Assembly (NCBI GenBank): GCA_951406725.2
Contig: OX597822.1
Coordinates: forward strand, 86,800,001 to 86,864,000
Reading direction: 5' to 3'
Length of the DNA stretch: 64,000 nt
Source: Octopus vulgaris
Taxonomy: Eukaryota
Numbering within the stretch: the first letter of the stretch is position 1; each line of letters starts with the position of its first letter. The notes beneath the pieces are model-generated. The model made no database searches. It was given only the letters and a program-made list of their open reading frames with translations, and was not told the origin of the DNA. Of the stretch, positions 4,250 to 40,784 are shown piece by piece. A program made the translations under genes and the position numbers.

Positions 4250-5736
4250 GAAAGAGCCATCGGCTTGATGAAAAGCGGAAAGGCGCCAGGGAAAGACAGT
4301 AGAACATCGGAGGTGTTAAAGTCAGGCAGAGACCAGCTCTGGAAAATCCTCGCTGAGCGATTCACGCACTATCTAGACGAGGGAAGAATTCCCTTCCAGT
4401 GGAAAGAGTCAAATATCACCCTGCTATATAAAAAGGGCGATAGAGAAGATCTAAAGAGCTACCGACCCATATGCCTGCTGTCTCACGTGTACAAGTTGTT
4501 CACAAAGATAATTCTGAACAGGTTGTCACGTCATCTCGACGAGCAACAACCGAGAGAGCAAGCCGGTTTCCGGAAGAACTACAGAACGATGGACCATATA
4601 TTTATTCTAACACCACTGCTTGAGCGAGCGAATGAGTACAAGCTGCCTCTTTGCGTTGCGTTTGGTGACTATGAGAAAGCATTCGACAGCGTCGAAACCA
4701 ACGCAGTGCTGAACTCGCTGCAGAGGCAAGGAGTCGAGGCGCAATATGTGCAACTGCTCATGGAGGCAAATTCCGGATGCACCACCGACATTGCTCTGCT
4801 GCCATCACCCGTACGAGTGCCGGTCGAGAAGTGAGTGAAGCAAGGAATTACGATCTCTCCAAAACTTTTCACCGCATATCTCGAGCAGATCATCAGAGGC
4901 ATCGACTGGCAAGGCGGTGTCAACATCATTGGCGAGCTACTCACCCACCTCTGTTTCGCTGATGACATCGTAATCATCGCTGAAACCACAGATCAGCTTC
5001 AGACCATGCTGACGGAGCTCGACATCAAAAGCTCTGCAGTAGGTCTTAAGATGAACCGCATGAACTTTGTTTTTACACGTTTCGACAACGTACTAACAGG
5101 TCGAATGGTGGTCGGCAGTGATGAAATAGAGGAGGTAAAGGAATATGTCTACCTGGGACAGAAAGTGAATATGTGCCGAGACATCGAAAAGGAGATCTCG
5201 CGGATAGTTAAGGCCGGATGGAAGGCGTTTAATGGCATAGGGGATGTGCTCAAGGGAAGGTTGGACAGGACCACCCGCGCCAACCTCAACAATAGCACAG
5301 TTCTACCTGCTGTGTTATATGGTAGTGAAACATGGGCTACAACAAAGAGAGAAGAGTAGAGATTGGTAACGGCTCAAAGAGCCATGGAGAGGTCAATGCT
5401 TGGAATCTCATTGAGAGAGCACATCGGTAGCGAGGTCATCAGACAGAAGTCCGGCGTGAGGGATGTCATCGTAGAATATACACGAAGCAAGTTTAGATGG
5501 GCTGGACACGTCGCCCGGCTCACTGATAATCGGTGGACCCACGCAGTTGTCGAGTGGTACCCGCGCGAGCGGAAACGACCACTCGGAAGGCCTCCACGAC
5601 GGTGGAGTTACGGTTTTAGGAGGGCGATTGGGACCACGTGGATGAGGAAGGCGCGATCCAGAGAGGAGTGGACAACGTGCTGTTACCTGCGGTGTTAAAT
5701 GGACGCCCGACAGACTGGTCAGTTAAGGTAATCAAG

Positions 5737-5807: not shown

Positions 5808-7699
5808 GTATGTACATACGCACATATATATATCATGTATATATGTGTGTATATGTGTTCGTGTATATATGTATATATGCAATTTTTTGTTTATTTTTTG
5901 TTGCTTTGCATCATTGTATTATACTGAACTGTATTGTACTGAATTGTAATGACTTGTTGTCTGTGGGGCAAATAATGAAATCATTATTTAATATTAGTTT
6001 TTAATGATGGCCTGAGTGGGGGCGCATTGCTTAGGGTTGCATTCTTCGGGAAATAACGATGTTAAAACCAATAAGTGTGAAAGCACCGATACGACCCGAT
6101 ATTTTCTGGAGATAATTAATTCTCCACTAATCTAATTCTGATTACTAAATGGGATAGGAGTCCATTAGGAATAATCCTTTTTTAGATAGAACTCAGCAAT
6201 ATGACAACGAGGAAATGTCACCAAGTGCATTTTTGTTTGTTATTTATGTCGAATGATTTCTTTGCCAGATGAGGAACGCTCTCGCTGAGTCACGTGATGT
6301 TGTCCGTTCAAAGAGACATGGCTTCGTTTGTAAGGTTATAGAGAAAACTAAGGCATTCTATAGCAAAGATGGCTTCTTCTTCATTATAATAATGTAAATA
6401 AGGGAGAAGTGGCTGCTATTACTAAAGGGGAATTTCAGACGCAATCTGAGTTGAGGAAATGATTGAATCTTAGATTCGTAGATATCACCCATTAACAATC
6501 TCTCTCTATTTTCCCCTTCTTGGCATTTACTCGCCAATTACCTCCACCTCCATTTAGATCTCACTTCATTCTATGAATTATGTCGCCTGGTAATCTTTGA
6601 TCTTACTCTCTTCCTTTTGCTCTGGGGGTCTCACCCGAAAGACTGCCTGGGGGTATTGTGCTGAACCCTTCTAAGGTAGTAGTCAATTCAGTTTTATCCC
6701 CGTGTTATCGAGGTCTGTTGGGTTTACTCCTCAAGCTATGCTACTGAATTTTTTCAGTTGATGGATTTTGACAATGTCTCCTGGGTATTGTTGAAGGTCT
6801 AGATCTTCATATGAGGCATTTCTATAAAACTACAAAGTAAGGCTTCTTTTGTGTTTTAACTGAAGAAGCGTATCTTAACGTTCTTGGCGGTAAGCGAAAT
6901 GGCGGAAACTACTAAATGGGAAATTTTGCATGTGCTGGCGCGCAATGTATGTGAATATGTATATGCTATTGCTCGCGCATGCTAATAGATCGAGGTAATT
7001 GACGGGGTGCATATCAACTGTTTGAAAACAAAAATATAAATATGTCTTTGTTTGAACGTTGTTGGGTTTTCATTAAAGTTTAAGAAACCCATTTAATCAA
7101 ATCAACATTTTTAAGCAGCTAAGAAACATTTTATTGTGTACTCTTTTTATTAAACAGTTTCCTAAACCTTTGCAATTAAGTATAATTATAATAAATGATA
7201 AATTAAAATTAACAAAGTCACTTTAGATCATCAAAAATAAATTTACATAACATTAGGGTTGTGTATCAGGAAATAACATTTAATGTACGTATATTTGTTG
7301 CTTAAGCTAGAATGTTGTATATAAGAAGAGTGGCCAAATGTCTGAAGCATTGAAGCTATGTTTTTTAGTCGAAACCTAATTAGGATCAATAAAGGAAGTG
7401 TATCCCCGTTCAAATTCACGGCGGATAAATTTTGGTTTTAGGCATTGCCATAAAGACTGTTAAGGTCAATAGACAAAAGTGAATTGATTGGTAGAGAAGG
7501 GTTTTAGGTTTCGGGGATATTAGCGGTCAATAGACGTACATTAGTAAAGGTCATTCCACTTCAGATTGCACGTTGAAAACGTGTCATACATTTCCGGACT
7601 TTTGAGGAAAGAGAGCCCTATAGAGAATTAAAGGGGTTGAAGGGAGGTACTACGAATCCAACAGATGTTTCTGTGGGATCGGTGGTCAAAAATAATGTT

Positions 7700-8381
7700 T
7701 GTAGATTAATTCCGACATCAATCTACATCAGCACCGACATCGTACGTCCACGTAAATATATTTGTTGCACCGGAAATTCATTCAAGAAACGTTTTTCCAA
7801 CCATCGATCCTCCTTCAGAGTCCCGGAAAGGAGATATGTAACATTGCTGGCCAGCCATGTTTGGCAACCAAAAGACGACGGAGTTCCACACACGACCTTA
7901 TGGAAAATCTCCGAAAACCCAGGCCCCTACATCAACAGGACGAAACGCTGCAAGCTAGGCATAGCCGAACGCACGAGAATCCTAAGAGACTCACTCGAGT
8001 CAGGGGCTATACTTAACTCCAGAACGGAGATTTTCGAGCCATGTTTGCATTTTAGGAGATTTCTGCTGGCCTTTTGGGAACCGCCGGAAGTTGATAGCTA
8101 ACGGGAGAGGGAGATAATATATTGTTTACCCTCCCAGCTGAACGATGGCAGTTCAACCGGAAGTCGATAGTCATTGGCAGAGGGAGATAATCCAGACTTT
8201 TCCTTTCCATATTTTAAAGAGTTCATAGGCCAACAGGTCTTGGGGTCTGACGATATGCCATAAAATTAAACTCTTTATGGACGGGAAACCCAAGGTAACC
8301 CCCCAAACCAGCTTTCACTAGAAAAAAATATAGATTCTTCTTCTCAGAGTGTGCTTCTCCAGATTTATGTTATTCTAAAAA

Positions 8382-38347: not shown

Positions 38348-38384
<37 letters not shown>

Positions 38385-38413
38385 CAAAATAAAAACATGA
38401 TGCCAAGGATTCA

Positions 38414-38491
38414 GCGGTACATATGTTTCGGACCTTTATTAGACGGATTTATAACAATGCATAATGTGTGTCTATGGCCTTCTTCAGCCGC
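38414..38491 (-). ncRNA. Minimal type-I hammerhead, mirror copy on the minus strand
   Basis: Exact reverse complement of 38634-38711. Confidence 0.85.
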
Positions 38492-38633
38492 GTACAATTA
38501 CTACTTCAAGGACATGTATTACATTATAAGTTTTACGTTGGGGATGCAAATCTTCACAGTCGCGACTGTGAAGATTTGCATCCCCAACGTAAAACTTATA
38601 ATGTAATACATGTCCTTGAAGTAGTAATTGTAC

Positions 38634-38711
38634 GCGGCTGAAGAAGGCCATAGACACACATTATGCATTGTTATAAATCCGTCTAATAAAGGTCCGAAAC
38701 ATATGTACCGC
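38634..38711 (+). ncRNA. Minimal type-I hammerhead with intact core
   Basis: Stem I GCGG/CCGC, CTGAAGA (38638-44), stem II GGCC/GGTC extended by TAGAC/GTCTA, GAAA (38696-99), palindromic ACATATGT stem III, GUA (38705-07). Confidence 0.85.
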
Positions 38712-38813
38712 TGAATCCTTGCCATCATGTTTTTATTTTGATTAATATACTCTACCACCTACACCACTAAATGGTATATACAGGTGCTTGCAATTATCAA
38801 GTATTCACCCTGA

Positions 38814-38960
<147 letters not shown>

Positions 38961-39264
38961 GCGGCCGTGGGAAAAAAATCAAATAGTCATAAACCATTTT
39001 TAAGTTCAACATCACAATCAAGGAACGGCCATAATAGGCCATTCACCCACTAGAAACAACAGCCAAAAGCCTCAACCGCTTTTTTTTGCCACCCTATATT
39101 GATTAATTGTGAATTTTCTGGTTAATTCCGTATTGAATCGGCGGCTTATATTTATTTGCTGCCGATAAATTTGGCGCGAGTGCGACGATTTGAAAATTTT
39201 AGGTCAGATATTGACGAGGTAGCAACGAGAATGCCTCGTGAGAAATATCTGTTCCGGCTTGGCT

Positions 39265-39371
39265 ATTTCTTACTGATGAATCTAAGGGCCTATGGTAGAT
39301 TGGCTTGATTTAATTTAATCAGGTTGGTTTTCCATTAAACAGTAGATGGGACGGTGCATCGTCTAAGAAAT
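39265..39371 (+). ncRNA. Hammerhead-topology motif with GAAA>GGGA core variant (unit 1)
   Basis: Stem I ATTTCTTA/TAAGAAAT, CTGATGA, stem II ATCTA/TAGAT enclosing a long hairpin, GGGA, near-palindromic stem III ACGGTGCATCGT, GUC. Confidence 0.78.
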
Positions 39372-39758
39372 TACAGGGTAAATGTTTTTTGATTTTCTCC
39401 TGGTTTACGGAATTGACGTTATTTTGCGGTTGAGGCTTTTGGCTGTTGTTTCTAGTGGGTGAATGGCCTATTATGGCCGTTCCTTGATTGTGATGTTGAA
39501 CTTAAAAATGGTTTATGACTATTTGATTTTTTCCCACTAGGCCGCTGGTGGCAGAAGAATTCTACAAAATTTTTTTTTTTGCCACCCTATATTGATTAAT
39601 TGTGAATTTTCTGGTTAATTCCGTAATGGAATCGGCGGCTTATATTTATTTGCTGCCGATAAATTTGGCGCGAGTGCGACGATTTGAAAATTTTAGGTCA
39701 GATATTGACGAGGTAGCAACGAGAATGCCTCGTGAGAAATATCTGTTCCGGCTTGGCT

Positions 39759-39865
39759 ATTTCTTACTGATGAATCTAAGGGCCTATGGTAGATTGGCTT
39801 GATTTAATTTAATCAGGTTGGTTTTCCATTAAACAGTAGATGGGACGGTGCATCGTCTAAGAAAT
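39759..39865 (+). ncRNA. Hammerhead-topology motif with GGGA core (unit 2)
   Basis: Identical to unit 1, offset 494. Confidence 0.78.
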
Positions 39866-40250
39866 TACAGGGTAAATGTTTTTTGATTTTCTCCTGGTTT
39901 ACGGAATTGACGTTATTTTGCGGTTGAGGCTTTTGGCTGTTGTTTCTAGTGGGTGAATGGCCTATTATGGCCGTTCCTTGATTGTGATGTTGAACTTAAA
40001 AATGGTTTATGACTATTTGATTTTTTCCCACTAGGCCGCTGGTGGCAGAAGAATTCGACAAAATTTTTTTTTGCCACCCTATATTGATTAATTGTGAATT
40101 TTCTGGTTAATTCCGTAATGGAATCGGCGGCTTATATTTATTTGCTGCCGATAAATTTGGCGCGAGTGCGACGATTTGAAAATTTTAGGTCAGATATTGA
40201 CGAGGTAGCAACGAGAATGCCTCGTGAGAAATATCTGTTCCGGCTTGGCT

Positions 40251-40357
40251 ATTTCTTACTGATGAATCTAAGGGCCTATGGTAGATTGGCTTGATTTAAT
40301 TTAATCAGGTTGGTTTTCCATTAAACAGTAGATGGGACGGTGCATCGTCTAAGAAAT
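40251..40357 (+). ncRNA. Hammerhead-topology motif with GGGA core (unit 3)
   Basis: Identical to unit 2, offset 492. Confidence 0.78.
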
Positions 40358-40475
40358 TACAGGGTAAATGTTTTTTGATTTTCTCCTGGTTTACGGAATT
40401 GACGTTATTTTGCGGTTGAGGCTTTTGGCTGTTGTTTCTAGTGGGTGAATGGCCTATTATGGCCGTTCCTTGATT

Positions 40476-40555
<80 letters not shown>

Positions 40556-40565
40556 TGTATGTATG

Positions 40566-40629
<64 letters not shown>

Positions 40630-40784
40630 GGCCGTATAGACCAATTATGTTGTATAATTAACTGTAAAAATGAAACTAAAATGATAAACTATGAAGATGT
40701 ACCAGTCTCCGTATTCTTTGTAATTGTTCTGGATTTATGACTGGTTCTGCTCGTTTCAGCGAAATTTCGAAATGTAAAAGATCC

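Follow-up and report, generated by a model that had tools for sequence, protein, structure and literature searches.

The window analysed here is a stretch of 64,000 nucleotides of the Octopus vulgaris genome, and all coordinates refer to it. It carries one insertion (38960-40480) of a young retrozyme family with a unit of ~492 bp that contains a type I hammerhead. We call this insertion the GGGA array after the cores of its ribozymes. The part from 39080 to 40480 is a tandem array (period 494, 2.8 copies, 99% matches) that amounts to 2.84 direct units. Scanning the array frames gave no stop-to-stop frame of at least 120 aa, and the array is thus non-coding. Hammerhead core positions (G12, 13, 14, C17) are numbered by what we take to be the usual convention. 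The features are as follows:

38817-38961, + strand: left target copy, a compound (TA)n(TATG)n(TA)n(TG)n microsatellite whose repeat order recurs at 40481-40630
38960-39079, - strand: inverted arm, unit positions 63-183, with A>G at 39073, 39071, 39057 and 38980 (C on the + strand)
39080-39363, + strand: 5'-truncated unit, positions 207-493
39265-39371, + strand: type I hammerhead motif 1 with stem I, CTGATGA core (39273-39279), long stem II and G12 at 39348, from sequence and folding; G13/G14 at 39349-39350, predicted cut after C17 at 39363
39292-39335, + strand: stem II insert, by folding a predicted 18-pair hairpin with six G:U pairs (five family-wide, one new at 39326)
39364-39857, + strand: full unit from cleavage site to cleavage site with all 11 A>G sites (39391, 39432, 39434, 39448, 39525, 39554, 39602, 39736, 39820, 39843, 39844)
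39759-39865, + strand: type I hammerhead motif 2; G13/G14 at 39843-39844, C17 at 39857
39858-40349, + strand: second full unit with the identical 11 A>G sites (39885, 39926, 39928, 39942, 40019, 40048, 40094, 40228, 40312, 40335, 40336)
40251-40357, + strand: type I hammerhead motif 3; G13/G14 at 40335-40336, C17 at 40349
40350-40480, + strand: partial unit, positions 1-131, with A>G at 40377, 40418, 40420 and 40434
40481-40630, + strand: right copy of the microsatellite target, repeat order as in 38817-38961

Apparently ~145 bp of the microsatellite target were duplicated upon insertion. The partial unit ends at unit position 131, the main insertion end of the family, which would be the start of reverse transcription. 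The inverted arm terminates at a short homology with the target and not at the usual site near unit position 237. Its 3' end (183) lies 24 nt before the 5' end of the direct arm (207), which is the geometry of twin priming.

A separate fold-back insertion of another repeat family, at 38376-38812, shares the (AT)n tract with the GGGA array. Its arms of 187 bp are followed by an extension of ~60 bp, and it has a type I hammerhead-like motif and similar TTGATT ends. The insertion is young: 40 scored candidates gave 46 matches, most of them 96-99% identical. Given the common tract and ends, the fold-back could be a pseudo-LTR fragment of a Penelope element that the same enzyme mobilised. Broken frames at 1258-2431 and 7577-8101 presumably resemble a Penelope-type reverse transcriptase and a GIY-YIG nuclease; the two gave no Pfam match at E<=0.1. 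Judged by its motifs, 4250-5359 seems to hold a fragment of a LINE-type reverse transcriptase.

When the genome was searched with the unit, 40 scored candidates yielded 215 matches, and the top sister units were 97-98% identical. The core pattern of the family has 694 genome matches and the exact right-end junction 433, which makes at least 433 insertion ends. We analysed 164 arrays (677 segments); 151 had not been chosen for A>G changes and 13 were picked by scans with forced G. The unselected sample, 151 out of at least 433 in the genome, is at most a third. Insertions of the family sit in (AT)n, and 112 of the 151 unselected arrays have two arms, head to head. The 3' ends in sense orientation form two clusters beside (AT)n, one at unit position 131 (119 ends) and one at 237 (85 ends). 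In a first set of 73 arrays, 30 were identical to their nearest array; together with the 694 and 433 genome matches this marks the family as dispersed and recently mobile. Across the family, joints over the cleavage site are exact in length in 353 of 354 cases, as expected from a covalently continuous template. A test for donor-to-daughter variant patterns across arrays was dominated by recurrent mutation. Two arrays show periodic variants (G000:C18:59816067 in units 2 and 6; G000:C1:41005465 in units 1 and 3 of one arm), which suggests DNA-level duplication or a multimeric circle as template. When we searched for a helper with reverse transcriptase and GIY-YIG that shares the family ends, we found none; the one lead turned out to be a sister repeat family (L205-L210, on C1, C2, C5, C7, C8 and C13 of G000). 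It is 71-88% like parts of the unit, has a tandem spacing near 474 bp and gave 378 motif matches.

Stems I-III and the type I motif were assigned from sequence and folding in every unit of the GGGA array, and the unit folds with z = -5.4 on the + strand and z = -3.7 on the - strand. An Rfam search of the array returned no match at the gathering score, and the 14 matches at E<=10 included no hammerhead family. The original prediction had read GGGA for GAAA in all three cores, and this is what we see at 39349-50, 39843-44 and 40335-36. The catalytic core is not intact in any of the three motifs, though it is in the family: GAAA makes up 382 of the 387 cores in the 164 arrays, AAAA and GACA occur once each, and the three GGGA cores all belong to the GGGA array. 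GGGA is hence neither due to chance nor the state of the family. Three A>G changes had been proposed for the core region; G13 and G14 hold, but the CGG of stem III is the family norm, with A in a single unit (L024) among the cores listed. The stem II insert, described as a 19-bp helix with about six G:U pairs, does have six G:U pairs but 18 pairs in total, and five of the G:U pairs are already present in an unedited sister copy. The only new one is at 39326/39820/40312. Richness in G:U, which had been read as a sign of editing, is therefore a trait of the family.

According to the mutational data in the relevant part of PMC4075628, changes at A14 lower hammerhead cleavage >100-fold and changes at A13 10-100-fold. 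In addition, the suggested pairing of G14 with C17 does appear in silico in the GGGA unit (P=0.77, with G and not inosine used in folding). On both grounds transcripts of the GGGA array are predicted not to self-cleave. In the unedited sister copy, folding already gives a competing structure that pairs C17 (P=0.6). A literature search found no published account of the effect of inosine itself in the hammerhead core. At 92 of 354 cleavage sites in the family, position 17 is A and not C (GUA triplet). This variant belongs to older subfamilies and should still cleave; C17 tolerates any base except G in the same part of PMC4075628.

Compared with its nearest sister array, the GGGA array has 11 differences, and 11/11 are A>G on the ribozyme strand; its unit is set apart from most sister copies by 11 substitutions of this type. 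Eight of these sites per unit, and the inverted arm that shares four, go beyond what had been predicted. The 11 sites were read as G in 35/35 cases over the 2.84 direct units and the inverted arm, including the segment that was copied first. Only three other substitutions exist in the array; each is found in one segment and none is A>G. The edits are therefore older than the copying, and units were not edited one by one. At unit position 69, G is also the normal allele of older subfamilies, which leaves ten secure sites out of 11.

Within the first 73 arrays the GGGA array is the sole outlier, 11 sites away from its nearest relative as compared with 0-4 for the other 72, in which A>G accounts for 11 of 73 differences from the nearest array. 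In the full set of 164, distances of 8-17 sites to the nearest array were seen for three arrays, which belong to older subfamilies with sparse sampling and show mixed types of change. For the background we used 149 arrays, dropping C1:195867700 (older subfamily), the 13 selected arrays and the GGGA array; variants were counted in near-invariant columns with homopolymer and gap-adjacent columns masked. A>G made up 4/38 array-fixed rare variants and 15/244 unit-only variants. Against 4/38, 10/10 A>G at the secure sites has P about 2e-10, and P 3e-7 after a crude correction (x 164 arrays x 12 types). A family consensus and a strand-wise tally thus gave a strand-specific A>G excess in this array, with GGGA not fixed in the family. 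The proposed fossil of A-to-I editing gains support from this, and so does the proposal that one edited template was read several times, since all units carry the identical set.

Could GGGA be a natural active variant of the core, as had been considered, or the product of ordinary DNA mutation or assembly error? The match of position 69 to the older-subfamily allele would fit, but we find this hardly credible: GGGA was found at this one locus only, all ten secure changes are of one type on one strand and recur in the reverse-complement arm, and the unit-only, post-insertion variants of other arrays are led by G>A (65/244) and C>T (30), as compared with 15 A>G.

The GGGA array stands alone in our data. 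Each of the 163 other arrays has at most one of its 11 changes, and we found no second heavily edited array among the 151 unselected arrays or the 13 forced-G picks. Four genome-wide scans for forced-G/non-A patterns recovered the GGGA array each time and no other locus with a GGGA core; such scans miss subfamilies that are changed elsewhere in the pattern (one missed C1:105063246). A scan with the GGGA core gave 11 matches; three are the GGGA array, and of the other eight four were examined, none of which aligns to the unit. Among family matches of the genome-wide core-pattern scan, only the three cores of the GGGA array have G at 13/14. Closest to a second case comes G000:C8:65384980 (L117), with two A>G in both arms, an array that had been selected for just that. 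Single fixed A>G changes were noted at C1:53282423 and C1:105063246, at positions 191 (4/4) and 456 (3/3), both in long hairpins. It is possible that these three are lightly edited arrays. The array-fixed variants of the 149 arrays show no family-wide excess of A>G, which was counted four times as compared with 11 times for T>C. The latter change, scored on the ribozyme strand, was enriched in the array-fixed class (11/38 vs 26/244 unit-only, p=0.007). Possible sources are A>G on an antisense intermediate, errors of the polymerase, and donors outside the sample.

The neighbours of the edited sites lean towards the invertebrate ADAR motif, for which we compared them with the motif as given in PMC5625713. 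A 5' U/A is found next to 10/11 edited versus 78/118 unedited adenosines (p=0.08), a 3' A next to 7/11 versus 40/118 (p=0.05) and a 5' G next to 1/11 versus 29/118 (p=0.22). A combined, post hoc test gave p=0.006, with no single test significant. Edited sites are distributed all round the unit and were not enriched in predicted self-helices of the circle (permutation p=0.75 by site and 0.45 by neighbourhood, with position 190 used for 191, in the same hairpin). An antisense partner therefore has to be assumed, for which the two-arm loci could in principle be the RNA source. ADAR-family deaminase domains were found at four genomic loci, in a Pfam family that also covers ADAT and ADAD. In contigs of presumed RNA runs, which lose rare variants and cannot reveal rare editing or circles, A was read at core positions 13/14 (X2 and X8 at all depth; X6 73/76 at 14). 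Contigs of X15, a probable DNA run of which 76% was read, show no G at position 13, with the same loss of rare variants. The presumed-RNA contigs have a surplus of A>G and T>C that is inseparable from subfamily variation.

We consider it likely that a single circular RNA, edited by ADAR, was read over several turns by a Penelope-type enzyme and written into (AT)n, which gave rise to the GGGA array. A sister locus would have been transcribed, its intact ribozymes would have cut out a monomer, and the monomer would have been ligated into a circle. ADAR would then have edited about 9% of the adenosines of the circle, A13 and A14 included, probably while the circle was paired with antisense RNA from the many inverted two-arm loci of the family. 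Reverse transcription would have started from unit position 131 and gone on for 2.84 turns (about three rounds), while a second primer would have copied positions 183-63 of the same molecule into the inverted arm. Editing after cleavage and ligation and before reverse transcription is expected since the core lies at the 3' end of the monomer and is needed intact for cutting. If editing is stochastic, as we infer, the identical sets mean that the same nucleotides were read repeatedly. A circle would explain this repeated reading in one step; even the shortest insertion that could have been duplicated later in DNA would need two or more readings from RNA at 10/11 sites. The second priming site of the GGGA array may have been spoiled by its A>G at position 236, an idea compatible with the data but weak because odd ends occur in 12/112 two-arm arrays, the GGGA array included. 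All of this is drawn from one locus, with circle, cleavage and editing predicted from DNA sequence and folding. As a more general statement, that retrozyme circles are edited by ADAR in the germline, core included, and written in register into the genome by a Penelope reverse transcriptase seems to us slightly favoured.

One other route would need two steps. An earlier edited copy might have been fixed and amplified in DNA, and its uncut linear transcript inserted by twin priming; the dead ribozyme of such a donor would lead to long uncut linear transcripts. The 24-nt gap between the arm ends at 183 and 207 fits this geometry, one Penelope enzyme used uncleaved RNA as its main, efficient template in the in vitro work described in PMC11167929, and the periodic variants of the two other arrays suggest that duplication in DNA does occur. 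On the other hand, stops at 207-210 recur in unrelated arrays, the 163 other arrays and four genome-wide scans yielded no donor, and several additional unseen events are required. We regard this course as unlikely. If it were true, editing would still be the source, but the insertion would be without proof of a circle.

It also seems improbable to us that editing of A13/A14 is a regular lock of retrozyme circles against re-cleavage and that the array caught a normal, locked circle. The effects of A13 and A14 changes on cleavage (PMC4075628) and the predicted G14-C17 pair speak for it, and as far as the relevant section of PMC7229834 goes, the ribozyme of animal circles is probably blocked by something besides self-pairing. 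However, the great majority of inserted cores are GAAA, so that editing as a general lock is not supported, and among the 387 cores G at 13 or 14 is confined to the GGGA array. Nine of the 11 edits fall outside the core, the unedited copy can already pair C17, the family has no excess of array-fixed A>G, and no offspring of the GGGA array was detectable.

Finally, a linear multimer or long hairpin might have been edited at the same efficient sites in each unit, or a linear monomer re-copied by template jumps from end to end. Long dsRNA precursors are expected where 112/151 arrays have two inverted arms, and two of the four array-fixed A>G changes elsewhere fall on sites 191 and 456 of the GGGA array (p=0.06). 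Such a multimer would require that each unit was edited at close to 100% at its 11 sites and left unedited at the 118 remaining adenosines, and release of a monomer is not expected from a core that is already edited. Jumps between templates usually add or lose bases at joints, against which stand the exact cleavage-site joints of the family. We therefore think both variants very unlikely.

With the edited circle as the favoured origin, the GGGA array looks like a rare (1/151 unselected arrays) copy that was dead on arrival: being predicted unable to self-cleave, it would be a dead end. It would be an accident of host editing and a barcode of a single template, not a regulatory switch, and is probably functionless.

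The element itself is, by its sequence, of a known kind, a non-LTR retrozyme. We found no literature report of an ADAR-type signature in register across a retrozyme array, in a search of mostly open-access literature. ADAR-type A>G clusters are said to have been put into DNA by reverse transcriptase in hypermutated avian retroviral sequences (the cases attributed to Felder 1994 and to Hajjar and Linial 1995), where the template was reportedly read once, without ribozyme and without circle. APOBEC-edited LTR retrotransposons (Knisbacher and Levanon, PMC4866542), the nearest parallel among the papers we read, have in common with the GGGA array a strand-biased, one-way deaminase signature relative to sister copies, but there G>A arises on cDNA and here A>G on RNA, in register across units. 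In the part of that work bearing on taxonomic range, APOBEC-type G>A is found in vertebrate LTR elements and absent from 19 invertebrates.

Metazoan non-LTR retrozymes, as portrayed in the sections concerned of PMC7229834 and bioRxiv 10.64898/2026.07.22.740005, are likewise non-coding tandem units with one type I hammerhead per unit and hundreds of dispersed copies, for which circle-templated reverse transcription by Penelope-like elements has been proposed. The octopus family differs in its ~492 nt unit with a long stem II insert, in insertions that consist of two arms and have two fixed ends in (AT)n, and in having a GGGA copy with an edited, predicted-dead core. Rolling reverse transcription is proposed in those sections, and editing is floated there only for RNA heterogeneity. 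Penelope-like elements, as far as the passages at hand of PMC11167929 and PMC8557442 describe them, share AT-rich targets, two internal starts of reverse transcription, tandem and inverted 5'-truncated arms and type I hammerheads; here there is no ORF, and the starts lie 106 nt apart as opposed to a 30-40 bp tail.

For the tandem insertion of animal retrozymes, re-reading of a circle has only been proposed, whereas a Penelope enzyme preferred uncut linear RNA in vitro. A stochastic set of edits that recurs exactly in three units, and in the inverted arm as well, serves as a natural barcode by which the circle and the linear model can be separated. In-register sets of A>G in tandem arrays also make a simple genome-wide screen. 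If our reading is true, RNA edits have been turned into inherited DNA in an animal, and arrays of this kind would directly prove from the genome, for the first time, that reverse transcription can roll round one RNA circle from two primers. ADAR would then restrict the retroelements of an invertebrate in a heritable way, by killing their ribozymes, as an RNA-level counterpart of APOBEC editing.
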